A DNA stretch of 63,125 nt, the filler included, from Chrysochromulina tobinii (lineage: Eukaryota): NCBI GenBank assembly GCA_001275005.1. It is 11 parts of 11 records of this genome, joined end to end, with 100 filler letters (N's around TTAATTAATTAA, not from the genome) between each part and the next. Parts side by side here need not be neighbours in the genome. Positions count along the whole stretch, not along the records: positions 37,038 to 49,081 come from JWZX01000086.1; 10 more parts are not named here. The stretch is one strand, 5' to 3'. Position 1 is the first letter of the stretch, and the number at the start of each line of letters is the position of its first letter. Positions 32,647-56,705 of this stretch are shown here, piece by piece. The notes beneath the pieces are model-generated. The model saw only the letters and a program-made list of their open reading frames with translations. It searched no databases and had not been told where the DNA came from. The position numbers were made by a program, and so were the translations under genes.

Positions 32647-35600
32647 AGCGGCGACGGTAACGATGCCGACGGCAACGGCGACGAGCGCGCCCGGAAGCGG
32701 AGCCGCGGGGCGCACGCAGGGGGCGACGGAAACCACGCGGGCGACGGCGGTCGCGGCGTGAACGGCGGGGGCGACGGGGGAATCAGTCTTGACGAAGACG
32801 GATCCGCCGTCTTGACTCGAAAGATCCTCGTCCACGTACGCTACAAGATCACGCACGGAGGCGGACGGAGGGACGCATATCGCGTTCACGAGCGGTGGAT
32901 GCCACGCGACAACACGTCGACCGAGCTATATGCGGGCGTCGCAGCGACGCTGGGCACGGAGGGGCTTATCCTGCGGAGACGCGTCCCCCTAGAGTCGACG
33001 CGCCGCACACAAGCGGTCCGAGAAAACGGGGACGCCGTCGACGAGGCACGTCGCGCCGACGTATGGCTCCCGGACGGCGTGGACATTGTCCCTCGGGACG
33101 ACACACCGATCCGCTCCATACTCTACTACACCTACATGCTCCACGTCGACGCCGAGGAGGGCCCCGAAAGCGCGACCGCCCACGACGAAACGGCAGTTGG
33201 CGCAAGGGGCGACAACGGGGACGGCGGCGGCGGCGACGGAGAAGGCGGCGCCGACAGGGACGGCGAAGATGACGGAGAAGGCGGCGCCGACGGGGACGGC
33301 GACGATGGCGGCGGCGGCGATGGGGACAGGGGCGGCGGCGGCGACGGCGACGGAGGCGGCGGCGGAAGCGGCACGCGAGCGGACCACGGCGACGACCGTG
33401 GTCGCAGCGAGGGCAACGGGTCAACGCCCCCAAGCCTCCTGCACATAGCGGCCAACACGGTCGTGCTGCAATGCGCGACGCGCAGCGAACTCGGCTGGGC
33501 AGTAGTGCACTCGGGCGTACTTGCACCCAACGGCAGGAACGCATGGGACATCGCCGATCTAATCTGCCAAGAGCTCCTCGACATGGATGCCGGAACGCTT
33601 CCTGCCATCGGGAATGCCATCAGCACGGCGGCAACACGACACCTCAGTATTGACGGGCTCGTCGGCGATCTTTTCGCCGCCGCCCTAGACATCGTCCCGA
33701 CCCTTAACAGAGCGCTCCGAGGCCAACGCCGGCCAGACGTACAGCCGCGAATGCTCCTACGGGTTCTCCTCACCGCCGCGTATCGACCGGCCGCAGCCCG
33801 GTCTGAACGGCACGTGGCAGGTGATCCTCGCGCCCGAGGGCGAAGACGCATACTCGCTCCTTCGACTCGTACACGGAGGCGCATTCTCAAGCCGCGAAGC
33901 GGCGGTTGCACGACTAGCGCCAGTGTGGCACACCGTCGGCGCGACTCCCGCCATTACGTACGTACCGCGTCTCGCCGCGGCGGGTCTGAAGGATGCGGTG
34001 ACACCTCACCGGACGGACGACCCTGTCGAGCCGCCCCAGGTGGCACTGGCGATACAAGCTACTGCGGTGCCGACGGCGTCGGTCGGACCGGCGAGGGCGG
34101 CCGCTTGCGCCCATTTGGCCGACCACGACGGCACGCACGATCCCGTCCCTGACGCGCCGCCGACGGCAGCAGACGGCCCATCCACGCGCACTGACGGCGA
34201 AAGCGACACGAAAGAGGCGGCGGAGGAGATGGATTGGGGGGGAGAGGTGCACAGGGGCGACTTCGACGCCTCCCTCGGGAGATACCATCCGATTCGTGAT
34301 CCATCCACGCTCCGCCTCCCACCCCTCCACGAGCGACGCATTACACTCGCGGAAGCCCTCCAGGAGCTGCGCTTACGGAAGGAGGTGACCTCGGGCCACA
34401 ATCTCAACTGCCTTGCGTACTCTATCCTGCTCGGCACAGACAGAATCGCGCCGGCAGCGCAATGGGTGACAAAAGAGCGGGGTGACGAGGAGCGCCGGCG
34501 CACGCACGAGACCATCGTGCGCCGCCTCCCGCCGGAGGCGGACACAAAAATAGGTCCCAATGGGGTGTGGTGGGCGGGTCAGACGCGGGATAGCCTGACC
34601 AGGACGATGGAAACCTCTCAAGTCATGGGCGAGGCACACGTGCATGGCTTCTGCAACAGAATCGACCGCTGTATCGTGATCGTCGATGTACGGGAGTCGG
34701 CGGCCGTAATATACAAGTACCTGCCGGGCTACGCCGCGCAGAGTCAGATCTCCATGCGCGAAGCTCACGAACTACGTAACAGTGATGAGCAGCCCATCTG
34801 GGTACTACTCGAACCCGATCACTTCAGCGCACTGTTACCAATACGGCGGCCCATCGCCTCAACGCCGCAGGCGCCCACAGGAGCGGGGGCACCCGCCAAG
34901 GTGACAAATGGCGCGGGGGCAGGCTCCGCGAGCGCGACGGCACAGGAACCGGAACAACGACCCTCACTACCGGAAAAGGGGTCAGCGCCGGTACCGGACA
35001 AACCCGAGGGTACGCAACAGCGGGGGGACGCAGCGGAGACAAAGATCGAGTGGGCCACGCGGATCTTCACGGACATGGGATACCCAATCGGCGCACGCAC
35101 GGAGATCGGGGACGCGGACGTGTACGCGATCGCACGGTATGTCGCGGACGCAACGGCCGGCGTGGAGGAAGCCGGGGACGGAAGATTCAACGAAGCGGCA
35201 GTACGCGAATACATCCGGGAGGGAGGAGGCGACGACAGTACGTACCCGCGCCATATACTACGACAAGCGGTGGGGGACTACCTTCGGCTGCAAAGAGGGG
35301 CCAAACACGCGCGCGACCTTTCCCCCGCCCACCAGGCCGACAACACGGCGGACGACCGAATAGTCTGGCCAGGCGATTCGGTGCGCCTGCAACGCGAGGA
35401 CACACCTGGGCAGCACACCCGCTGGAAGGCATGGAAACAGGGAACCACGGGAACGGTCCTTCGCAGCGCCGGTCGGGGCGACTGGACGGTCCTCATCGAG
35501 GACAAGGCGGGAAAGATCGAGGTCCACGTCCATGACCACGAGGTGCACCTCCTCGCCAAGCGCGCACCGGCGGCAGGGGACGTCATTCTTTCCACAAGGA

Positions 35601-36937
35601 GCACCCCACACACCACCGCGGCGAGGGCCGGGCGGAAGGGCACTCCGGGTACGCACGCATTGATCTTACGGCGGCGGGCACCGGACGACGTGGCGCGCGG
35701 GGGCGCAACCTGGCACGCCTTCCACTGGCATGACCACAGGTACGTGGTCGTCCACGAGGAGGACATGACGCGTGCCCCGTGGCAAGCCCCGTACCGACAG
35801 CAGGAAAGCACGCTGCAATCGCTGAAGGCTCAGGGGGCACTAGTGACAATAGCACAACGCGTGTACGCCCAAACGGGGGACTGGGGAGGCGAGATCCTCT
35901 CGGCTACAATGGACGCCGCCGCACGGGACGGACTCCACACCGATGCGGGGCAGGCGAGCAGGGCAATCCAAGAGGCGAAACAACGATGGCAAGGGGGACG
36001 GCCATGCGCGCACATGGTCACGCTCAATCACGGGGGTATCCTCGTACGCTTACGCGAGACCACCGCGGCCATCCCCGGGCAGCGACGCATGGCGACGGCG
36101 CCAGCACACGCGGACACCGCCGCGCTGGCGTGGGAAGCAGACGGCAGACTATGGCGCACGATGCACACTCTCGCCGACGGGAACGACGTCGTTCTATTAC
36201 AGGAGACCCACCTCCCGGAGCTCGACCCAGAGGGCCGCAGCGAGCGGGTCATGCAAATGCTCACGAGCGGCGAGTACTCGACGTGGCGCGCGGCGGCGTC
36301 GCCCGCCCCGGTGGACGACGCGTATGCGGGCGTTCTCATGTGGTGGAACACCGCCACAGTAGAGGTAACGGAGATCCAAACACTGACACCTGGACGGCTC
36401 CAGCGCGCGAGGGTCCGCGTCTTAGCGGACGGTACGGATTTCATCGTCGTAAACGCGTACGTCCCCACCAAGCGAGGCGCACCGACCGTCCGCCAAGCGA
36501 CAATTCTCGAACACGTCCGGGCACACATCCAGGCAGCAATCGACACGGCGGACGACGCCGGCGACGAGATCGTCATCGGGGGCGACCTCCAGGCTCAGAC
36601 GTCGGCCACCCTCGAAGCGCGCAAGGACACGGGCAGTGTCAATGCGTACGACTCGTGGCTCGACACACTGTGCGCGGAACACTGCCTCCTGAGCGTCGGC
36701 GATGACGAACCCACCTACAGCGGGGGGGCCGGCGGCCCGCAGACGACTATAGACCACTGGCTCGTCAGCACGGGACTCGCCGACCGGGCAGCGGCGGAAG
36801 TGGGAGCGGGCGCGGACGGGCTCGCGGGACTGGGGGACGGTACGCACGGGCACAACTCCCTACAACTGAGCATTACCCTGCGCACCGCCGAAGCGGAGGA
36901 CGCAGAAGAGAAATGGGAGCAGCGGGAACCGCAACTA
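32647..36937 (+). mobile_element. Non-LTR retrotransposon 5' part: OTU-like protease + APE endonuclease (RT not reached before the contig ends)
   Basis: APE motifs VTLNHGG, VVLLQETH, VVNAYVP, IVIGGDLQ, PTY, TIDHWLVS, GH; OTU-like GHNLNCLAYS...EPDHFSALL. Confidence 0.78.
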
Positions 36938-37037
36938 NNNNNNNNNNNNNNNNNNNNNNNNNNNNNNNNNNNNNNNNNNNNTTAATTAATTAANNNNNNN
37001 NNNNNNNNNNNNNNNNNNNNNNNNNNNNNNNNNNNNN

Positions 37038-37874: not shown

Positions 37875-40800
37875 TCACGCCGGCGGCCCCAGGGTCGCAA
37901 GGAAGCTCTGTAGGTCAAACTCCTCCTCATACTGCTCAGCGCTCCACAGCTCGCCCACCGTCTCCAGTAAGTTATGGAGCCCACCGCTGGTGCTGCCGCC
38001 GCCTTCGCCGCCGCCGCCGGCACTAGCGGCCCGAGAGTGCGCCGCGCTCGGCTTCCCGCTCGGCTTCTCACCTGCTCCGGTAGCGCTGGCTGCGTACTCG
38101 GCGAGCATGGCCTCGTCTGGCGTGGTCGCGTCCGCGGGCCGAGCCGGCGCGAGCTCAAACAAGTCGAGCAGCTCGTGCGTGTTCATCGTGGAGAGCGCCG
38201 CGTTCTGTTGGTTGACGACCGTGGCGGCCACGTGCCGTTTGAACGCCTGTGCGCTCATGATCTTTTCCTCGAGCGTGCCGCGCGTCACGAGCCGGTACAC
38301 GTTGACGACGCGCCGCTGCCCAATACGGTGCGCACGGTCCATCGCCTGCGCACCACTCGGTGGCACATCCAGAGGCACATTCAGAGGCACTCAGAGGCAC
38401 TCAGAGGCACTCAGAGGCACTCAAAGGCACTCAGAGGCACTCAGAGGCACTCAGAGGCACTCAGAGGCACACGCCAGGGGAGACGGGAGAGGGCATCGAC
38501 ACACCTGCAGGTCCTTCATCGGGTTCCAGTCGTGGTCGAGGAAGATGACAACGTCGGCACCCGTTAAGGTGAGCCCGAGCCCACCCACCGACGTCGTGAG
38601 CAGCATCAGGTCGATCGACGCGTCGGAGTTGAAACACTCGGCGAGTGCGAACCGGTCGGGCGCGGCTACCTTGCCGTCGAGCCGTAGGTAGGAGACGGTA
38701 GGCATATGTCCCTCGAGCAGCTGGGGGCGAGGTGAGCGCGAGATGAGGGCGAGATGAGGGCGAGATGAGGCGAGATGAGGCGAGATGAGGGCGAGATGAG
38801 GCACTCAGAGGCACGCAGAGGCACTCAGAGGCTGCCGGAGGGCAATCCGATGTTAATCAAAGGGCAATCCGAAGGCAATCCGAAGGCAACCCGAAGGCAA
38901 TCCGAGGGTAATCACCTGAGACTCGACGAGATCAAGTAGAGCACCGCTTTGGCTGAAGATCAGGGCGCGATGCGTCGCGAGAGGCGTGACCGCGCTGCCC
39001 TCCTCCTCCACCTCTAGGGCTACACCCAACCCGTTCTCGTTGTCGCTCCCGCCCTCGCCGCTGTCGCCAAGGGCGCCGCCGCCCTCGCCCTCGCCGCCGC
39101 CTCTGCGGCCGCCGCGCCGTCCGCCGCCCTCGCCGGCAAGGCCGTTGCCACACTCGCGGCCACTCTCGGTGGGCCGCCCGATGCCACACTCATGAAGGAG
39201 TTGCTGGAGCGCCAGCAGCTTGGGCGCGCATGCAAGCGCTGTGAGTCCGCCGCTCGACACCGCGGCAGCCACGCAACGCTCATAGAGGGGATGCGAAGGC
39301 GTGAGGGCGAGCAGCGGGTGGTTACACACACGCCGCAGATATTGGAGTGCGGCGAAGACGTGCGCATGGGCGGCGCCATGGGCGCCGTTGTGAGCGCCGT
39401 GGTGAGTGCCGTGGTGAGCGCTGCCGTGAGCGCCGTGAGCGCCGTCCCCCGCGCTCGCGCTCTCCTCTTGCGCCGCTCGCCCGTGTACCATGCGGACCGC
39501 AGCGTACAGGAGGGCTTGCACTGGATGTAGCTCACACAGTCTGTCCTCGATCACCTGCACTCGGTGTCATATCGCTATCAGACGCAATCCGATTCAATCA
39601 AGTGTCATCAAGTGTCATCAAGTATCATCAAGTGTCATCAAGTGTCATCAAGTGTCATCAAGTGTCATCAAGTGTCATCAAGTGTCATCAAGTGTCATCA
39701 AGGTTCATCAAGGGTCATCAAGGGTCATCAAGGGTCATCAAGTGTCATCAAGTGTCATCAAGTGTCATCAAGTGTCATCAAGGGTCATCAAGGGTCGTCA
39801 AGGGTCATCAAGTGTCATTCAGTGTCATCAAGTGTCATCAAGGGTCATCACCTTGGGCGGCAGCTCGGTGAGCACGGACTCCTTGGTGCGTCGAAGGCAC
39901 AGCGGGAGGACCTGCCGGTGAAGCCGCGCGAGGGCTTCCTCCCCCATCAGCTGCGCCGCCTCGCCCGCGCGCGCTCCTTGCGACGCGTGGATGGGCTGTG
40001 CATACTCGCGCTGAAACGCGAGCTGGGTGCCCAGGTAGCCCGGCATAAGAAAGTCAAACAGTGACCAAAGCTCGAGTGCGTGGTTTTGGAGCGGGGTGCC
40101 CGAGAGGATCAGCCGACGTGCAGCGCGCAGCCGCTTGGCAGCACGCGCAACCTGTGCCTTGGGGTTGCGAATGATGTGTCCTTCATCGAGCACGGCGTAT
40201 TCCCAGCGCACCTGTGGGGAAGGGCAGGGCGCCGTGGTGAGCAAATGCATGCAAGGACTCATCGAGCGCGGCGTATTCCCAGCGCACCTGCACTCAAACG
40301 GCACTCAAGCGGCACTCAGAGAGCAATCAGAGAGCAATCAGAGAGCACTCAGAGAGCAGTCAGAGAGCAATCAGAGAGCAATCAGAGAGCACTCAGAGAG
40401 CACTCAGAGAGCACTCAGAGAGCTGTCAGACCGGGCAGCCGTCCTCTGATCGCCTACCTGTGCCAGCGCGTCGATGTCTGTTCGGAGTGTCTCGTAGGAC
40501 ATCACCACCAGCTCCACCTCATGCACTCGCAAGCGCAGTCGCGCGCGCTGTTGGGCACTTCCCCCATACTCAAGCACACAGAGCCCATCGGAGCCACAGA
40601 ATTTGGTCGCCTCGGCGCGCCAGTGCGCGGTGAGGGTGGCCGGGCAGACGACGATGGAGGGGAGGTTCGCTGGGGGGGAGGTGGCGCCGCCGTTGCCACT
40701 GCTGTCGCTGCCGTTGCCACTGCCGCTGCCGCTGCTGCCGCCACCGCCGCCGCCGCCGCACCCGAGACGCTCGCTCGCGCCCGCGCGTCTCGCTCGTTGC

Positions 40801-43800
40801 TCGTGCGCGGCGGCGGCGAGCACACAGAGCGTCTGCAGCGTCTTGCCAAGCCCCATGTCGTCGCACAGGATGCCATGGAGTCCAAAGCGGCGCAGGAAGG
40901 CGAGCCAATCGACGCCGGCTTGCTGGTAGGGCCGGAGCGTCGTCTTGAGCACCATCGGCAGCTCGTACCGCGGCGGCGCACCGCCCACGACAACGCCCAA
41001 CAGCTGATCCACACAGGGGCGCTCGGCGGCTTTGCGTGCGCGGAGCGCCGCCGACATGTCGATCGGGTCAGCTGTTCCCGGCTCGAGAGGGAGCAGCGGC
41101 ATCAGCTGCCCGAACGCGGCCGAGGCCTCGTGCCGAATGCATGCCGAGCTGTGAGCGAGGCTAGCCACGAGGGGGGTGATCAACAGGGCGGCATACGGCA
41201 GCACACGCGTCTGCAGCGTGCTGATGATCGCGCGCATGCAAAGCGCCGCCCCCAACTGCGTGCCAGGCGGCGCCGTTGGGTGCGCCGCGTGGGGGAGGAG
41301 CTCGAGCAGCGCCTCCATGGCGCCGCAGCCGAGGGCGTCGCAGCACATGGCCACGGCCTGGGCGGCCAGCCGGCGTATGTCGAGCAGCCCTGACGAAGCC
41401 GACGAGGCGGGCGCTGTGGCGGGCGCGCCGTCCGGAGCGCCTTCGCACACCGCCGCCGCCGGCGTCACCGCTGCTGCCTCGCCGCGGCCGTCGGCGACAG
41501 ATCTGGCTCCCTCCTCCTCCTCCTCCCCTTCCACACCTGGCAGCTGAGGCGCCAGCACGACGCGCGCCGTCGCGGGCACGAGGCGCAGCAGCTCGGCCGC
41601 CGCGCCTCCCACGAGGTGTGAACCCACGAGGTGTGAACCCACGAGGTGTGGCGCGAGGGCTCGGAGTATCTCGAGCGCCGAGCGCAGCTGCAGCTCGTCA
41701 TCGAGAGGAGCGCCCTGGAGAGAGGGCTCATGGGTGGCGTCGCGCGGACTCTGAAAGGCCTCAAGAGGCGTCTGAAGCCCCTTCCAAAGCGCGGGAAGCC
41801 GTTCAAAGAGACGATCACCAAACTCGTGGCAGCACGCGCTCAGTGCGGCGCGTGCACCCGTCGCCGCCTGCCTGTCCGCCTCCGCCATCGCTGCCGCCTC
41901 CGCCGCCCCAACCGTCGCGCCATCGGGCCGTCGGCCCACAAGCAGCTTGCACAGATTCGCCACCACCTTGTCTGCGAGCGCGCCCGACACAGCGCCAGCG
42001 CCCGACACAGCGCCCGTGGCCCCTCGGCACGTGTACTGCTTCAAGAGGTTGGCGAGCACCGCGGCAGCACGCGCCTGCACCGCCGGCGGGGCACCCTGGA
42101 CCGCGTTCATGAGCGCCTTGACGATTGGATTGAGCTTCGGCGGCAGTGCGCGGAGGCGTACGATGCCCTCGGCGGCCGCCGCGCCGAGGGTCGTGCACAG
42201 GCTCTCGCGCTGCACCAACACGGCGCGCCTAGCTTCGAGGAGTGCGTCGCGGGCTACCTCACACCGGGCACGCGCACGTGCACTCACGGTGTTGGGCAGC
42301 AGCCCCATCCAATGGGTGTAGATTCGATCGCTCAGAGCGAGGGCCGCCTGCTCGCCCACAGGCGCCCCCGCACCCCCGGGCCAGCTGGCCGACTGGGATG
42401 ACAAAGCACGCAGGGCCTCGGAGGGCGCGCCGGCCGCCTCAAACGCACGCAGCAGCGCGGTGGCGTGCGCCTGCATCTGTGCGAGGGGATGCCTCATCTC
42501 ACGCGCGGTGGCGGCGACCACGGCCGCATCGCTCGCCAGTGAGAGAAGGACCGCACTCAGTGCTGTGAACCCAGTGCTGTGAACGGCACCCAGTGCTGTG
42601 AACCCAGTGATGTGAACCGCGCCAGTTGAATTGTCCATCGCCGCGCCCAAGACAGCGCCCTCGCCTGTCTCGGCGCCCGTCTCGGCGCCCAAAGCCGCTC
42701 GTGCACCCGTCGCGCCGTGGCGCTGCGCCCACTCGGCCACCACCCACGCGCACACCTGCCGCATCGTCGCGGAGGACGTCGAGAGGCCGGTGAGCAAGCT
42801 CGCACGCCACGGGTCGCTGCCCAACAATTCTGACGAAGCAGGCTCACTTTGACGAAGCATGCGCCTGTCCAACGACTGTGACGAAGCATGCTCGCTGCCC
42901 AACAATTCTGACGAAGCAGGCTCAGGCATGGCGGCCGCCTCGCACGCGGCGGCGATTGCACCCAGTGCCGCAGCCCCTCGCGCGTGCATCCCACTCGAGG
43001 CCACTCGAAGTTCAAATGGAAGGGGCTCGCACGCGTCGTGATGGGCATTCTCGTCGTCGTCCAGCGCCACGCCGCCGACAGCGCCGCCGCCCCCGTCCCC
43101 GTTGCCGTCGTTGCTCTTCGCGTTGCGACGCGCAGAGCCAGCGGCCCCACGCCCCCCTGTGCGCATCGTACCGGTGGCCGCCGCGGCGGCGCTGCCATTG
43201 GGGGCAAATGGCGGCCGGTGCAGCCCTCGCAGATGGATAGGCTGGCTTAACGGAGTGCCGAGCATCGCCAGCCAGTCGCCGATGTGAGGCGCGGCGGCCG
43301 CACGCAGCTGGCGCGCGGGTACGACGCGCACCACGGCCGCAAGGGCCGCTTCGGCCGCTGCGTGCACCGATGTGCTCTCATCCAGCAGCGCGGCCTGCAC
43401 GAGCAGCTGCAGCGCTGGACCGAGCTCGCCCGTGTCCTCGGTACCCGCGCCATCTGTGGCGCCGCCGCCGCGGGCACATAGCCACTCTGGCGCGCTCGCG
43501 GCCGGCGCCGCCGGCGCGGCCTGCGCGGCCGCATTGAGCAGAGCTTCGAGCGTGCGAATGGCCGCCGCGCGCGCCGTCGCCGACGGGTGGCGCCAAAAGG
43601 GCCATAGGCGAGGGACAACGGTCGCAAGGCTCGAGGCACCGCCTCCGCCGCCCTTGCCTCCGCCTTTGCCTTCGCCTCCGCCTTTGCCTTCGCCTTCGCC
43701 TTCGCCTTCGTCCTCTCCAAAGGTGGCGAGGGCACTGTAGGGCAAGCAGGCGCAGTAGGCAGAGAGCGTCGTCATCACGTGCGCCGCGGAGGACGTGAGC

Positions 43801-45399
43801 TCATCAAGCTCGAGGAGCACGTCCCAGAGCGCGCCCAGCACGGCACCCAGCGCGCCCGGCGAGAGCAGCGTGCCGACGCGTGCCGCTACGCCCCCCGAGA
43901 GCCTCGGCAGCGACGCAACGCACGTCGTCGTCGTGGTCGCCCGCGAGGGCGGCTCGGAGCGCTTCCGCTGCCTGCGGCAAGAGCGTTGGTAGCAAGTCGG
44001 TGCGCACAGCGAGCAAGTATTTGAGCCCGAGCATTGCGGCGTGACGAACCTCCCACGTCGGCTGACGCGCCATCACCAGCAGCGCTTGCGCCACTTGCGC
44101 CGCCGCGGCCGCTGTCATCGGCTGGAGCAGCACCGCGAGCGCTTGCGCTGCCGTCTCGCGAACGGGTGCGACGACCTTATCACCAGCGGCCCAATCCCCA
44201 AACCGATCGAGAGAGAGTACACAGATGAGCCGGAGGGCGCAGTCCTGCAGCCACTGCGCACGCAGCTCGTCGCGCACCCGTGCGGACACGCCCCCCACCG
44301 CACCCGCCGTGGCCGCATGCGCGCGCAACACGGCGCGCAGCCCCAGCGCAGCGCCGTGTCGGCGCTGCCAACGTGGCTGGAAGAGTGAGCAGCGCAGCTC
44401 AGCACACAGCGGCTCGAATGGCCACTGGTCGCACCTCTCCCACGCCGTCGCATCGTCCAAAGCCGCCACCGCATCGCCCGCCGGATCATCCCCTGACGCA
44501 GCTTGGACGGCAGCCAGTTCAGCTCCCGCCGCTTCGCCTTCGTCGTCGGCAGCCGCGGCCGCGACCGGCGGGCAGCCGGCCGACCCGTCCGAGGCTGTTG
44601 CGCATGGCGCTGGTGCTGCCGCTGGCTCGAGCCGCCGCGCGCGCTTCGCCATCGGCAGCTGCACGACCACGCCATCGGCGCCGCCATCTGTGGCCAGCTT
44701 GGCCGCCCGACGCGCTTTGCGCTTGAGCGTGTTGCGAGCACGCTCTGAGAGAGCACCACCGCTGGCCGCGAGCTCCTCAGCGATCAGGCGTGCGGCGGCC
44801 AACTGATGCGCGTCCGCTGCCGCCGCCCGGTGCGAAGCTGCGGCGGCGCGCCCAGCGCCGAGCACGTCGTCCTCCTTGATGAGGTCCATCATCTCGCGCT
44901 GCTCGCGCCCGCCGATGGCGCTTCCGATGGCGTCGAGGCCGAGCTGCTCCTGCAGGAGCGCCCTCTGGCGGAGCAGGCGCTCGTGCGGCCGGTCGTCCGC
45001 CGCGTCGTTGGCCTCGAACTCCTGCCCACCACTCGCCAGCAGTGGTGCTCCATGGGCCAGCACGCGGTCGATGGCAAAGCTCTCAAAGCTCAACCACGCA
45101 CCGGATGCCTCGTCGCGTGCTGCCGCCTCGACCTCGGCCGACGCCGCGTCCGGATGGCTGGGCTGCCACGTCGTCACCGCCTCGGCGATCTCCTCGAGCG
45201 CATGCGCGGCCGCTCTGCGCGTCTCCCACTCCTCGTGGAAGAGGTAGCACAGCACGCGTTGGAGCAGCGCGTGGAGCTGCTCCGGGTGCTCACGCTGGAT
45301 GGCACCGAGCTGTCGGCCCGCCGCGAGGCGCGCCGCCTCGCTCGGACCGGTGCGCAGCAAGCCCAGCAGGCGGTCAAGGCGACTTGGCCGTGCCATCAT
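37875..45399 (-). CDS. BTAF1: TATA-binding protein-associated SNF2 ATPase BTAF1/Mot1; introns 40212-40457, 39555-39851, 38721-38915, 38346-38504; apparent +1 frameshift at the C6 run 43891-43896
   Basis: SRLDRLL N-terminus; LSLDRFGD..VAPVRETAAQ; LRPYQ; GILCDDMGLGKTLQ; LDEGH; LSGTPLQN; YLRLDG; GGLGLTLTGAD; DWNPMKDLQ|AMDRAHRIGQ; EQYEEEF. Confidence 0.95.
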
Positions 45400-46561: not shown

Positions 46562-49081
46562 CTATCTCATAGTCTGAGCTATGATGTTATGGATGGGCGT
46601 GTAATTGCCCGCTCGTCCGAGGCCAAGCTCACCGATGGCTGTGACCTTCCACGTGTGCCCTGGTGCGGTGCGCCAGATCTTGGCCATCACAACCGCCGTC
46701 TGCTCCCCCGTGGGCCGCCCGTCCAGCTCGTAGCGCGCGAGAGGCACCCCCGATCTGTCGGCCGGATCAAAGCAGCGCACCTCCGGTCGGATGATGTCGG
46801 AGAGTCGGGCAGTATCCCACGCAGAGAGTGTCAGGTAGATGGCGCCAACTTGGTCGCTGAGGGCGCGCAGGTCAATGTCGACCCTGTGTGTGCCCTCGCG
46901 CTTCTCCGCGTCGATCTGGTCACCAGAATGGCGCAGTGCCACGCCCCTCCCCCCCTCGCCGTACGCCGTGTGCACGCCGCCGGAGACCAATCCCGTCGCC
47001 GATCGCTGGTTGTCGTAGTCGACGTAGGCGAGCGGCTTGCCGTCGAAGCTGTACGCGAGCGCCGACGCGTCGAGGTAGAGCGTTCCCTCACCCGCCCAGC
47101 GCCACACCTCCTCGAACCGGACCGCCTTCATCGTGGGCGAGGCAGTGACGGACTCGCCCCTGCGCAGGATGGCCGAGACGCCGCTGCGCTGGACACGCGA
47201 AAAGTCCATCCCTTTCTTGTGATAGCCCTTCTGCTCTGAACGGCCAACGGCGCGGATGAACCACGCGTGAATGTAAGCCTTCGACGGGAGCGGCACGTTG
47301 ATGAGCGCGTAGAACTCGGGCCACGAATCAGCGGCCATCACCTTCGCAATGTGCTGACGCATCGAATGACGAAGCCACGGTGTCGGGTTCCCATTGAAGT
47401 CATCGAGCTGCGCTGGCGACACCTTGGAAAGGCGGGACAGGAAGCCGACAGAGAACATGAGCAGTCGGTTCGAGACGCGCCGCGCCTCCCAGCAACGCTG
47501 CACGAGCTCATCCACCCCGAGCGTGTGCGGAGTGGCCAGCTCGGGGTGATGGCGGCAAGCCCAGAGAACCGAACGGTCCATCATCTCCTCGAGCAACGGC
47601 CACGCGAGGTCGCTCCAGCGCAGGCTGTTGCAGATGGCGAGCAGCGGCACGAGATCGCCCAGGCTCGGCTCGGACGCCTTGCCGCGCTTGCTTTCCTTGC
47701 CGATGAACTCCTGCACGCGCTTGGTCACCTGTGCTCGTAGCGCCGGGTGCTCGTGCGCGAGCGCGAGCAGAAGCCGATAAATCTGCGTGAAGCCGTTGAT
47801 GAAGACGTCGGAGGCTGCGACGCCCCGGTCGACGAGAAGCACGACGAGCGTGCACAGTAGCTTCGGCAGCACATCGAGTGCCATCTCGGGCACAAAGCGG
47901 CCCTGGGCGAAGCGCCACCGTGGCGCGTTAGCGCACAGGGCAGCGATCGTCTGGTGCAAGATGGGCCTCGCCGCCTTGAAGTGGTCACGCGTGAGGTAGA
48001 GCGGCAGGAAGTGGGTGAAGGCCTCGCCCCATACGCTCGTGCGCACACCATCTTCCCTGAAGGCCGAGTACGAGAGCGTGTCGAGTGTCGAATAGATACA
48101 GTCCACTTCGTGCGTGCGCGGGTTGACGGTGAACGTGAGCGGGATGCCGAAGACCTGTGGGGAGGAGCAATGGCGCCGTGGTGAGCACTTGCATGCGAGT
48201 CGGAGGTCCATATATGAGGTTCGAGGGATGCCAAAGACCTCGAGCCCTCCGCGCTTCTCGTCGAGCGCGCCCAGCGTCGCCTTGCTGTGGTAGCAGCGGA
48301 GTAGCTCGGCGTTGCTGCTGTGCTCGAGCATGTATGCGTGGCGCCAGTCGCTGAGCGAGGCCGCAGCTAACTGGGACGCTGGGAAGTGCCGGTGGAAGAG
48401 CACGCGCCACAGCAGGCCGTCACTGCATGCGCTGCGCAGGTGAGAGCACGTGCACGCGAGCGAGCGCACGTCTGCCTCGGAGTGCAGCTTCTCTATGACG
48501 ATGATGAGCGCGTCGTACGACAGCAGCGCAAAGGATCCCGAGCACTCATCTGCCGTCTCCTCATGTGCCTCAGGGTCGGCACATACCAAATTAGGGTCGT
48601 CACAGCCCCTCTGCTCGGCAATCGAGGCCGTTGGCTTTGCAGTGGCAACGGTGACGACTGCGGCGGAGGCGGCGGCAGTCTGGGCGGCGTCAGCCACGCC
48701 CAAGCCGCCGCGCTCGCGCTCGCGTTTGCGCGCGCGGTAAGCATTCTTCTTCTGCGTCCGCTTGCTTGGGCCAGTCTTTTCAGACGTGCCCTCATCGTCA
48801 GCTGCAGCACTCTCTTCCTCATCATCTGCATCGCTCTGCTCGTCTCCCTCGACGCTGAGCACGGCAAACTTGCCCTTCAGCGCCTGCGGTTTGGGCGGCG
48901 CTAAGGCGAGCGACGGCTTTGGCGGCGGCGCTGCGGCAAGAAATTGCTTTGGCGGCGGCGCTGCGGCAAGCAATTGCTTTGGCGGCGGCGCTGCGGCAAG
49001 CAATTGCTTTGGCGGCGGCGCTGCGGCAAGCAATTGCTTTGGCGGCGGCGCTGCGGCAAGCAATTGCTTTGGCGGCGGCGC
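46562..49081 (-). CDS. F-box + uncharacterised domain + C-terminal TerD-like domain protein, 5'-partial; in-frame intron 48155-48238
   Basis: F-box LSYDALIIVIEKL..SLACTC..LW; TerD-like YLDASAL..VDY..LRHSGD..IDLRAL..WKVTAIG; 30-bp QLLAAAPPPK repeat. Confidence 0.75.
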   Translation of the reverse strand, partial: APPPKQLLAAAPPPKQLLAAAPPPKQLLAAAPPPKQLLAAAPPPKQFLAAAPPPKPSLALAPPKPQALKGKFAVLSVEGDEQSDADDEEESAAADDEGTSEKTGPSKRTQKKNAYRARKRERERGGLGVADAAQTAAASAAVVTVATAKPTASIAEQRGCDDPNLVCADPEAHEETADECSGSFALLSYDALIIVIEKLHSEADVRSLACTCSHLRSACSDGLLWRVLFHRHFPASQLAAASLSDWRHAYMLEHSSNAELLRCYHSKATLGALDEKRGGLEVFGIPRTSYMDLRLACKCSPRRHCSSPQVFGIPLTFTVNPRTHEVDCIYSTLDTLSYSAFREDGVRTSVWGEAFTHFLPLYLTRDHFKAARPILHQTIAALCANAPRWRFAQGRFVPEMALDVLPKLLCTLVVLLVDRGVAASDVFINGFTQIYRLLLALAHEHPALRAQVTKRVQEFIGKESKRGKASEPSLGDLVPLLAICNSLRWSDLAWPLLEEMMDRSVLWACRHHPELATPHTLGVDELVQRCWEARRVSNRLLMFSVGFLSRLSKVSPAQLDDFNGNPTPWLRHSMRQHIAKVMAADSWPEFYALINVPLPSKAYIHAWFIRAVGRSEQKGYHKKGMDFSRVQRSGVSAILRRGESVTASPTMKAVRFEEVWRWAGEGTLYLDASALAYSFDGKPLAYVDYDNQRSATGLVSGGVHTAYGEGGRGVALRHSGDQIDAEKREGTHRVDIDLRALSDQVGAIYLTLSAWDTARLSDIIRPEVRCFDPADRSGVPLARYELDGRPTGEQTAVVMAKIWRTAPGHTWKVTAIGELGLGRAGNYTPIHNIIAQTMR

Positions 49082-51789: not shown

Positions 51790-54410
51790 TCAGGGGGAGT
51801 GCCCGTAGTCGCTGTCCACGCCATCGAGGAGGCCAGACTCGTAGTGTACTCGAGTCATTTCGAGTTGCTCTCTGCGCGTGAACTCGATATGGCCTACTTG
51901 TGCGGGCGCGGGCTCTGCATCGTTGGCGGCTTCGGCATCTGGTGCGTCATCGCCGTCCGTGCCGGGCCCTTCGGCCCAGTCCATGGCGGCTAGCTCTTCG
52001 ATGGTGTGCGCCGACGCCAGTCTCTGGATGTCTTTCGACACTCGGACGGCCATGCGTGCGTCCCTTGCAAAGGCGGTGCTCTGTGCGTATCTGTCCGGCA
52101 GGACCGCACATTTGAGCCTGTGTTTCTTGAGCTCTGCTGGTTCTGGGACTAGCGTGGCGCTCTGCGCGGCGCTGCCGGAGAAACGCCCGAGGCCGTGCCG
52201 CTCGATCGGCCCGAGAAGCATGCGTGCGGCGTGCTTGAGCATCATGGGCTTGAGCGAGTGGACCTTGAACTCGAGTAGCGACGGCGGCTTGCACGCGAGC
52301 GGCGGGAGCGACAGCAGAAACTGTAGCGCCGCGTCGGCCCGTCCGCCGAGGATGGGGCCGTTGGTGAAGGCGCAGCCTTCGACAGGTGCGCCGGAGGCCG
52401 AGTCGTTGTCACGGACGAGGAAGCAGCCGTCTTCGACGTCGCGGAGCGCGTCATAGACCTCGTCGATGACGCCGCGCGAGCCGTAGGCGTCGAGGATAGG
52501 CCCGAAGGCCGGGCGCGGCGACTGCTTGTGCGGCTCATTGGACTTGTCCACCTGAACGCACGTGTAGAGCACGCCGTTCTTTTCGGCCAGGATGGCGCAC
52601 GCCTGCGCTTGTTTGAACCTCGACGTCTGCGAAGCCACGAGCGCGAAGCCGGCGGCGGTGCCGCGCACGACGCGGCTGTGGTGGTGCGTGGCGAGGTAGC
52701 AGAGCTGAGCGTAATGTGGTGGCTCAAGCGCCGGCGTCGGGATGGAGGTTGTTGTACCAAACTTGCGCTTGCAGACGAGTGCGTCGTCTGCCGCCGTGGC
52801 CATCTTGACGTTGTCGAGCAGCCAGCGCAGGGAACGGAAGGCGGTTTTGGCGGCTGTGCGCCCGTCGCGCCTCTGCTGCTGCGCTGTGAGCACTCTGCCT
52901 TCGGCCTCGGCCTTATCTCTGTACGCTTTGGCGGCGTCGACGGCCTTGACGTTGACCTCGTCGAGGAAGCTGTTAGTGAGCTGCGCCGGGTACGTGTCGT
53001 TGTCGGCTGCATCGTACTCTCCCTTTGCTTCGGCGTATGCCCGGAGGCGCGTCAGCGTGGAGAGGGCGCCTTTGAGCGTGGACGTGCCCCATCGGGCGAG
53101 GAACGTCACGAGCTCGTCGGCGCAGTTCACGCTGTAGGGCTCGTCGTCGTGGAGCCGCATGGCCGTCTTGATGAGGTCTCTCCCCCAAATGCCGGCAATC
53201 GTCTGCAGCGAGAGGGCTGAGGCGAGCTGGCATGCGGCCCGAGTCCTGTTCGCCTGGTCTCTCATCTTGCCAGTAATGAGGGGCCCGCCTTTTTTATTTC
53301 TGCCCAACTGAGCCGGCATGAGTAGCTGCACCGCTTCGCTGATGGCGCAGCTGGCCTTGGCCCAGGCGACGTAGCGGCCGTCGCCTTGAAGCGCTGCCTC
53401 CATGGGTACTGCGACGCCGATGGGCTGGTATTGCTCGAGGCCGCTGTGCTGGCCGGTGGGCACCACGAGAGCCCGTTGCTGTGCGGCATGCGTGCTGGGC
53501 TGTTCGGCGAGGTGCTGTTGGTGCAGCAGGTACGTCGCCGAGGCTGGGATGGTGTCGCGTGCCGTATTGGCAGCGATGTAGAGGCGGTTTCGGCTAGGTA
53601 GTGCTGGCTTTCTCGGCTGCTTGTCGCGGATCGTGTTCCACACGTAGTGACCCTCGGGGTAGGACAGCAGCGCTCGCCGTACTTCTTCTTGCTCTCCTGC
53701 GATGGCACGAGCGACCTGCTCGGCTCTCGCTTTGAGCTCTTCCGCCTGGTTCGACTCGCGCAGCCCTTGCATGATGTGCTGGAGCCGCGAGCCGGGCATG
53801 CCGACGCTGGAGTCGGATCTGGTGTTGTGGAGGCGGCTCTGCTGCTGCACTCCGAATGGCACCAGCTGGCCGCCCATCCCGTGCGACGGCTCCACGGGAG
53901 TCGTAGTCGCAGCAGGCGGAGGGCCCGGGGGGTTGCAGAACATGCTGCGCTCGAGCGCCGACGATGGCCACTCCGACGAGGCGCTAGAGCTGCCCGGCTG
54001 GTAGCCACGCTGGCCGGGCTGCGGCGTGTCGTCCCAGATGTTGTGCCACGCGCCTGCGCCGCTGGGGTCGATGGTGCCATCGAGGTCCCCATATGGGGTG
54101 AACACCCTGATAAGGCGGCCGACCGGGGTCGGCTGCTGCGCGGGTGGCGCTGCGCTCGGGCGTTCGTCATCGTGGGTATCGCGCGGCGCGATGCCGCTGA
54201 TCGGCTGCGCGCTCTCGCTGGCGCTTCCGCCCTCGCTCCCTGCTGAGGGGGCGATTGATTCATCTTCTGCAGCTTGCGCGTGCGCGTCGGAGATGTGCTC
54301 GTCGCCCGCTAGAGTTTCGACCTGGGCACCGACGGCAGGGTCACCTGCTCGTGGTGGGCCGGCTTGTACTCCAGAATCGCGACCCCGCTTCTGTGCTCCG
54401 CGGCGCGTCT
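51790..54410 (-). mobile_element. Tyrosine recombinase ORF of a DIRS/Ngaro/Crypton-like element, 5'-partial
   Basis: Ordered catalytic-like motifs TSRFKQAQ (R), VDKS (K), VHSLK (HxxK/R), RHGLGRF, DRYA (Y). The frame is open to the contig edge. Confidence 0.72.
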
Positions 54411-55618: not shown

Positions 55619-56705
55619 TGATCGTGATACGCGAGCACGCAGGCAATCAAGCTCGTCCAAAGACCGAGCGCTCATCACTCAGACGCAGTCAGACTCAGTC
55701 AGACTCAATCGGACTCAGTCGGACTCAATCAACTCAACGGTGGTGCTCGTGATCGTGATACGCGAGCATGCAGGCAATCAAGCTCGTCCGAAGACCGAGC
55801 GCTCATCACTCAGCACTCAGACGCGGTCAGACGGTCTCGTAATTCGCTCAGACTCAATCAGACGCAGTCAGACGGTCTCGTAATCGCCTCAGGCGCGGGA
55901 GGAGGGTAGTCGCGGGGGAGGGGGTGAGGGAGCGGAGTGGCGGGCGGGCCGCGTCAGTGGAGCCCTCGTACCTGTGGGGAGAGGGCGCGCCGTAGTGAGG
56001 ACTTGCATTCGAGCCGTCCATCATCAGACGCAATCAGACGCAATCAGACGCAATCAGACTCGGCAATGGCCGAGGCGGCGATGGCTGAGGTGGCGATGGC
56101 GGCCGAGTTGGCGATGGCGGTCGAGATGGCAGTGGTGACGCCGGGGGTGTGGGGGGGCGGAGGAGGCGATGGCGGAGGCGGTGATGGTGGTGGATTTGGG
56201 GGTTGTAAACGTGGCGGAGGCGATGTCTGTGGGGGTGACGGCGGAGGCAGTGACGGTGGAGGCGGTGATGTCAGAGGCAGTGATGACCGTGGAGAAGGCG
56301 GTGAGGGCGAAGTCGTCAGCGGCAGAAGTGACAGCGGTGGCAGCACCACCGTTGAGTTGATTGCGTCCGATTGAGTCCGATTGAGTCTGACTGAGTCTGA
56401 CTGCGTCTGAGTGATGAGCGCTCGGTCTTCGGACGAGCTTGATTGCCTGCGTGCTCGCGTATCACGATCACGAGCACCACTGTTGAGTTGATTGCGTCTG
56501 ACTGAGTCCGATTGAGTCTGACTGAGTCTGACTGCGTCTGAGTGCTGAGTGATGAGCGCTCGGTCTCCGGACGAGCTCGATTGCCTGCGTGCTCACGTAT
56601 CACGATCACGAGCACCACCGTTGAGTTGATTGCGTCTGACTGAGTCTGACTGAGTCTGATTGAGTCCTGATTGCTGAGTTGATGAGCGCTCGGTCTCCAG
56701 CTCGA
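55619..56705. repeat. ~130-bp unit containing CAGACTCAGT 10-mers; about 2 copies forward and 3 inverted
   Basis: gtgatcgtgatacgcgagc..gaccgagcgctcatcactcag..caactcaacggtggtgctc at 55619 and 55749; reverse complements at about 56345-56705. Confidence 0.75.

Follow-up and report, generated by a model that had tools for sequence, protein, structure and literature searches.

The 246-nt intron of the BTAF1/Mot1 gene of Chrysochromulina tobinii consists of a repeat-filled unit of 170 nt (unit A) followed by a 76-nt unit (unit B) that is one member of a high-copy intron family. On balance, we read this intron as the outcome of two insertions at one exon junction that is mostly removed in a single step, with the AG/GT motif at its internal boundary (the slash marks the junction) a by-product of the way it was built. 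The initial annotation of the window, by which we mean the whole 63,125-nt stretch of DNA analysed, filler included, had described stacked introns with a zero-length exon and a natural recursive-splicing substrate, and had overlooked the family. The features discussed are collected in Table 1.

Table 1. Positions of the BTAF1 intron, its parts and neighbours, and of related cassettes in the window
Feature	Position	Strand	Details or basis
BTAF1/Mot1 exon 5′ of the 246-nt intron	40458..41009	-	Pfam PF00176 positions 1-122; ends ...GCACAG; extends further 5′
Unit A, 170 nt, GT...AG, repeat-filled	40288..40457	-	GTAGGC...GAGTGCAG
11-mer tandem array within unit A	40312..40423	-	TRF, 10.2 copies, 95% matches
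Internal CAG/GT (CAG/GTGCGC at 40288/40287), candidate ratchet point	40286..40290	-	sequence
Unit B, 76 nt, copy of next-exon start plus family cassette	40212..40287	-	GTGCGC...CCCCACAG
Duplicated target, CAG plus 29 nt of downstream exon	40259..40290	-	31/32 identical to 40214-40183
High-copy acceptor cassette	40212..40258	-	putative branch point TGCTCAC (40243-40237), pyrimidine tract, CAG; depth, copies
BTAF1 exon 3′ of the 246-nt intron	39852..40211	-	Pfam positions 125-232; 98% to C. parva model
Next BTAF1 intron, repeat-filled, ending GAGTGCAG	39555..39851	-	excision yields ELPPK/VIEDR; relatives read LPAKIIEDR
Stand-alone family member in another gene, 84 nt	48155..48238	-	starts with 13/14 next-exon copy; locus L001; RNA-skipped
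Diverged third copy of the cassette, preceded by a repeat array	55972..56010	-	exon copy: none detected

Anatomy and removal of the BTAF1 intron

The gene is identified as BTAF1/Mot1: its best protein match, at 98% identity, is a gene model of Chrysochromulina parva that has the junction peptide in common with it, and additional matches bear the names BTAF1/Mot1. The two exons that flank the intron match neighbouring parts of the Pfam domain SNF2-rel_dom (1-122 and 125-232). The structure reported by the initial annotation holds up in the sequence: two complete-looking GT-AG units of 170 and 76 nt abut at CAG/GT, the first is filled by 11-mer repeats that TRF recovers as an array, and the second opens with a copy of the next exon. 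The template of that copy is the first 29 nt of the downstream exon, and the 31/32 match between 40290-40259 and 40214-40183 has a chance probability of about 4e-17 per alignment. The end of unit A, GAGTGCAG, is the same as the acceptor of the next BTAF1 intron, which we count as working because homology demands its excision; an acceptor like that of unit A can thus function. Excision of all 246 nt gives ...DIDALAQVRWEYAVLDEGH..., and excision of unit A alone shifts the frame and brings a stop 35 codons on, just as had been anticipated for use of the first AG alone. Reading 40287-40259 as a micro-exon is ruled out, as there is no in-frame acceptor after it and both homology and RNA demand excision of the full 246 nt.

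The locus is contained in ten DNA and six RNA runs, in all cases as assembled contigs, and one DNA run and three RNA runs were aligned. In each of the three RNA runs the aligned piece of the contig ends at 40209, with 176, 193 and 237 letters remaining. The GT can be assigned to either side of the cut, so under full removal this remainder is expected to start at 40456. The depth then predicted for the bin 40462-40762 is 2.81, 2.75 and 4.11, compared with 0, 0.25 and 1.08 if only unit B were removed and 1.55, 1.63 and 2.75 if only unit A were. The depths observed were 2.81, 2.75 and 3.69, two of which equal the full-removal prediction exactly while the third lies nearest to 4.11 (vs 2.75 and 1.08); run X13 agrees with full removal only roughly. 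To judge by where the contigs end and by their depths, the three RNA contigs are consistent with excision of the entire 246 nt. No splicing intermediate is present among the displayed RNA contigs of the three runs, a test of little power because at a depth of about 5, and with contigs dropping rare forms, intermediates could not have shown. In the DNA run, depth in the bin that holds the cassette exceeds that of the flanks 62-fold, a value that is not a copy number but marks the sequence as a repeat.

The remaining three introns of BTAF1 (38915-38721, 38504-38346 and 39851-39555, all on the minus strand) are likewise filled with repeats, and each comes after an AG of the exon. The BTAF1 model of C. 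parva (P0001) comprises just 568 aa, omits most of the middle and is truncated at the next intron, so the introns of this gene seem to hamper its annotation.

Census of the cassette family

Within the window, the last ~42 nt of unit B recur at 48196-48155 and, diverged, near 55972. The first of these recurrences lies in the stand-alone 84-nt intron of Table 1, which is skipped in record 23 of RNA run X13. Since this intron is in frame and stop-free, ORF callers read through it even though the RNA skips it.

A pattern scan of metagenome contigs found the ~25-nt core of the cassette at no fewer than 133 places (at least 133 stretches), with its 3′ end exactly at the junction. From these came 141 listed matches, of which 23 were dropped as duplicates or for short flanks, leaving 118 unique loci with enough flank; they include the window's own stand-alone intron and were drawn from several assemblies, which may represent several strains or species. 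Viral contigs gave 0 matches. A copy of the downstream exon lies directly 5′ of the cassette at 98 of the 118 unique loci among the matches listed, against a null of 0.3% (3000 shuffled pairs), and in the other 20 no exon copy reaches a score of 9 within 70 nt. The copies are 9-44 nt long, begin at the junction with 0-3 further matching bases leftward in 95 of the 98 listed loci, and differ from their exons at 113 of 2508 bases over the 98. By eye, we sorted the 98 into 69 stand-alone and 17 compound loci and set aside 12 (tandem cassettes, odd cases).

Among the 69 listed stand-alone loci, the exon copy starts with GT in 62 and with GC in 6; position -1 is G in 59, position +3 a purine in 63 and position +5 G in 51. 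The modal donor is GTGCG (15/62 stand-alone members vs a background of ~9%), and GT[AG]NG accounts for 40/62 stand-alone donors compared with 24% of exonic GT. These are the bases of a splice donor, which derives from the host exon; the acceptor is supplied by the cassette, because an AG precedes the copy in only 26 of the 69. All 98 listed loci have a putative branch A at a distance of 23-33 nt from the end. With 150 nt on each side, the frame is open in 57 of the 69 after removal of the unit, as opposed to 41 with the unit kept and 41.5 in a shifted control; at 90 nt the same test is weak (66/69 removed, 58 kept, 60 shifted), and only the 150-nt version separates removed from kept.

The 3′ end of the cassette is fixed and its 5′ end ragged, with nested 5′ truncations of an extension common to several loci. 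Microhomology of at least 2 nt at the 5′ junction, where cassette and exon copy overlap, is found in 13 of 20 testable loci vs 19% by chance, a figure inflated somewhat by the x-drop extension with which the duplication was scored. At three loci (L078, L087 and L091) exon copy and cassette are repeated head-to-tail, as unequal recombination between long repeats predicts, and the reverse of that event would excise the intron precisely.

The long copies extend beyond this cassette. A second 3′ end (...CTCATCAG; acceptor end ...CCTCATCAG), whose motif occurs in the loci, has repeat-filled bodies and, in 17 of its 35 loci, is preceded by a long downstream-exon copy, where the null is 1.3%. It occurs at L005, L023, L041, L044, L055, L056, L057, L098 and L115, and some of these introns are stacked mutually (L022, L023, L041). 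The presence of the same long copies at a second 3′ end indicates that the process is not bound to one cassette.

Order of gain and route of splicing

Anatomy and the comparison with the family both support the proposal, already made in the initial annotation, that the two units of the BTAF1 intron are two separate gains. The unspliced ORFs of relatives (P0002-P0004 and P0014; 75-80% identity) continue through the BTAF1 junction and have no intron there, which makes this intron position a gain specific to the lineage if these ORFs, as their ends would have it, are raw calls. No empty allele of any family locus was seen within the species examined.

The order of the two gains, which had been taken to be the birth of a second intron at the acceptor of the first, is possibly the reverse. 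From the sequence comparison we consider it fairly probable that unit B came first and that unit A landed later in the donor of unit B. The copy in BTAF1 starts with GTGCG, the commonest donor of stand-alone members, which are enriched for GT[AG]NG in the proportion given above. Furthermore, at ten sister loci a repeat unit looks as if it had been inserted into the donor of an existing family intron along with a duplicate of the end of the upstream exon, which counts against the order first claimed. An internal copy of the exon-exon junction follows the repeat array in the compound introns L004, L016, L034, L047, L050 and L053, and further in L069, L071, L076, L085 and L096; the ten loci just mentioned are these 11 without L085, and such internal copies imply that repeat units, too, insert with long duplications. 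A less favoured but still substantial possibility is that the same end state was reached in the order of the initial annotation, unit A being the older and the cassette having landed on its acceptor and taken over the 3′ splice site. Events in this order must have occurred at L020, at L085 and in the L022 variant, where the copies start with CT or AC and were never possible donors, whereas the typical donor of the BTAF1 copy and the ten sister loci speak for unit B first. Comparison of the first 45 nt of unit A with the fetched loci and the window gave, among the matches listed, 10-13-nt matches outside its own array and was uninformative, and when the window was scanned for AG-anchored repeats, coding repeats dominated the result.

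The compound loci also bear on how such introns are removed. Seven of the 17 listed have AG/GT or AG/GC at the internal boundary, eight have an internal GT without an AG, and two (L020 and L085) have an AG without a donor. At the eight the outer donor must win, and at L020 and L085 the cassette acceptor must win; because ten of the 17 are without a usable AG/GT, one-step removal is the likelier route and the ratchet looks like a by-product. If the ten genes concerned work, the outer donor would beat the inner one and the cassette acceptor the older one, giving one-step removal, although the loci were sorted by eye from sequence alone and some may be dead genes. We therefore lean, with some reserve, towards a single cut, between the outer GT and the AG of the cassette, as the main way in which the BTAF1 intron is removed. 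Where the outer junction carries an AG (7 loci), its internal copy has lost it in 3 (L016, L071 and L076), a loss that counts for the one-step route but is only suggestive. For human introns <1 kb, the available text of PMC10156609 gives more conventional than recursive lariats. Absence of a donor does not differ significantly between stacked and stand-alone copies (2/17 vs 1/69, P=0.10).

Alternatively, removal in two steps might dominate, either with unit A cut first so that CAG/GTGCGC is regenerated (recursive splicing at a zero-length exon) or with unit B cut first and then unit A. Each unit is complete and has a normal intron size, the 3′ end of unit A matches the working acceptor at 39555, the donor of unit B is the commonest in its family, and either two-step route is available at no cost. 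Moreover, AG/GT or AG/GC is kept in the seven compound loci, and a zero-length exon is described for a 336-nt intron of S. pombe in the portion of 10.1101/226894 available to us. We nonetheless regard dominant two-step removal as rather unlikely, given that the point is absent from ten of the 17 compound loci and lost in three of seven junction copies; the displayed RNA contigs contain no intermediate, which is a low-power test. The recursive splicing put forward by the initial annotation may occur, but the three RNA contigs fit the full product only and ten sister compound introns would need one-step removal. CAG/GTGCGC does have the makings of a recursive splice site, in that a 3′ splice site is followed immediately by a 5′ splice site within an intron. 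Selection does not appear to keep it, the site being present in seven and lacking in ten of the 17 sister compound introns and the relatives being without the intron. Recursive splicing of the BTAF1 stack is accordingly possible and apparently dispensable.

Recursive splicing at zero-length exons is known from Drosophila and human introns. The BTAF1 stack resembles those systems in that an acceptor is followed immediately by a donor inside one intron, and differs from them in that its candidate site is not conserved in sister introns of the same build and that the relatives have no intron. Recursive splicing in short introns is reported for S. pombe SPNCRNA.445 (336 nt; 10.1101/226894) and for human (PMC10156609) in the text of both sources that could be consulted, so that the ratchet point taken alone is of modest interest. 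Fungal stwintrons, as portrayed in parts of PMC6616335 and PMC9024468, are likewise short compound introns, some of which spread as families. In a stwintron, though, the outer intron has one of its splice signals split by the inner intron and two steps are obligatory, whereas the BTAF1 stack interrupts none: its outer GT and its final branch point and AG are intact in the primary transcript.

Possible origin of the family and its relation to known introns

How family introns might arise can be sketched from their build. A staggered break would duplicate 9-44 nt of the target from the future junction onward, and between the two target copies the 3′ end of an intron, ~42 nt with branch point, pyrimidine tract and CAG, would be copied in from its final AG backwards. 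The first target copy would then give the donor and the cassette the acceptor, so that the mRNA would be unaltered. Target-primed reverse transcription of the 3′ end of an intron is our leading candidate for the copying step, at somewhat short of an even chance, and a DNA template switch during break repair is a possible second; the fixed 3′ end, the ragged 5′ end with microhomology and the long, variable duplication fit both mechanisms. A fixed 3′ end, a ragged 5′ end and a variable duplication are established traits of non-LTR insertions. The family shares with SINEs and other non-LTR elements the fixed 3′ end, the truncated 5′ end with microhomology and the duplication of variable length, and lacks both their A-rich or simple-repeat tail (0/98 listed loci) and a head derived from tRNA, 5S or 7SL (an Rfam search of 40150-40500 gave 0 matches at E<=1). 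Nor does it resemble MITE-type introners derived from TIR DNA transposons, as the longest inverted match between termini is 3-4 nt in 98/98 listed loci and the duplication is 9-44 nt.

It is also possible, though in our view doubtful, that no mobile element is involved, and that local tandem duplication or repair of staggered breaks made these introns with the cassette, a homogenised intron 3′ end, serving as repair filler. The lack of a terminal inverted repeat and of an A-rich tail in all 98 loci and the empty Rfam search would agree with such an origin, as would the same long duplications at a second, unrelated 3′ end (17/35 loci vs a null of 1.3%) and the 4-12-bp repeats of Daphnia gains that are ascribed to staggered breaks in the consulted part of PMC4202315. 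Against it stands the core, which at 133 or more places has its 3′ end exactly on the junction, since a random-repair filler would not end at an AG in register so frequently.

At its widest, the copying hypothesis says that a Chrysochromulina near C. parva makes introns genome-wide by an undescribed form of retro-copying, and that repeated hits build compound introns, some of which are newborn recursive-splicing substrates; we offer this only tentatively and consider it on the unlikely side. Under retro-copying, the 3′ end of an existing intron would be written into staggered nicks, the 9-44-nt duplication would give the donor, and the BTAF1 stack would be a newborn recursive-splicing substrate of only 246 nt. 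No mobilising enzyme was tied to the cassette. Elsewhere in the window, a long ORF at 33689-36985 (+) has an endonuclease/exonuclease/phosphatase domain (PF03372) at its end, is interrupted by the spacer between contigs and is possibly the start of a LINE-like ORF2. The long frame at ~51790-53900 (-) we take, by eye, to be like a tyrosine-recombinase element.

Introners that carry an acceptor and co-opt their donor from a 4-nt target duplication are known, according to the sections available of PMC9860276, 10.1101/2020.10.14.339549 and the review PMC11282704. One of the closest likenesses is to classes 4/5 of Polarella glacialis (10.1101/2020.10.14.339549), in which, as far as the accessible description goes, the element gives the acceptor and the duplicated target the donor and the mRNA is unchanged. 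In what could be consulted of these accounts, the duplication is fixed at 4 nt (3-9 bp being typical) and the Symbiodinium example has TIRs, whereas the cassette family has a variable duplication of 9-44 nt that makes up about a third of the intron, a ragged cassette 5′ end and no TIRs. A published introner labelled Chrysochromulina is described, in the extract at hand, as comprising introns of ~70 nt without TIRs, much like the cassette family; it carries the 5′ site and co-opts its 3′ site from a 4-bp duplication, which makes it the mirror image of unit B, and its type may resemble that of unit A. Direct repeats of exon ends also flank new introns in the staggered-break gains of Daphnia (PMC4202315) and in AGGT tandem duplication (PMC3443670), to judge by partial texts. 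As those texts have it, the Daphnia repeats are 4-12 bp long with no common insert, unlike the cassette family, and tandem duplication draws both splice sites from the exon, whereas an AG stands before the copy in just 26/69 stand-alone members here. A survey of 213 introns gives 4-30 bp repeats at intron borders (PMC11782384, from the portion available).

The cassette family behaves like introners in that many similar introns lie at unrelated loci (the 133 or more matches, 118 of them unique and usable among those listed) and in that the copies are spliced out, as indicated by the one stand-alone copy skipped in RNA, the donor consensus and the open-frame test. It departs from them in having no similarity at both ends, the 5′ part (median 34 nt) being specific to the locus and consisting of exon copy plus linker. 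The family of unit B thus works like an introner and fails the both-end definition. The screen of Gozashti et al., in the part of its description consulted, requires similarity that comes within 10 intronic bases of either end of the intron, at both ends; the part consulted of file 7 of PMC12130899 gives 0 introner families for C. tobinii. Because the 5′ third of each intron is a copy of the host exon, the family would slip past both-end screens, and intron gain may therefore be under-counted. Behind the family there is probably a way of making introns to which the usual introner searches would be blind. We found no account of it in the literature searched; the cassette motif is absent from the parts searched of the introner supplement tables (30 of 99 Chrysochromulina family rows), and introns are mentioned once in the accessible text of the C. 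tobin genome paper (PMC4580454).

How new introns originate is an old question. If the reading given here is true, retro-copied introns would be invisible to both-end searches, and recombination between the long repeats could remove them precisely. The organism is culturable and its compound introns come in three natural states (AG/GT, AG only and GT only), so that splice-site competition and the birth of recursive sites are directly testable.

That the duplication is an artefact of assembly, the outcome that would have undone the initial annotation, is hardly credible: the window is made of joined contigs and none of the displayed DNA contigs covers the whole intron, but the exon copy bears a mismatch of its own, the 10 DNA runs contain 0.89-0.91 of the words of the locus, and the same design recurs at ~100 independent loci. 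Runs of N with a TTAATTAATTAA spacer join contigs near 37000, 49130, 51140, 54460 and 56880, so genes on either side of these spacers are unlinked. Finally, the BTAF1 frame shifts at ~43800-44070 (-) without an obvious intron, and record 27 of DNA run X9 has one gap within 43721-44941, which makes a one-base assembly error likely near the frame switch.
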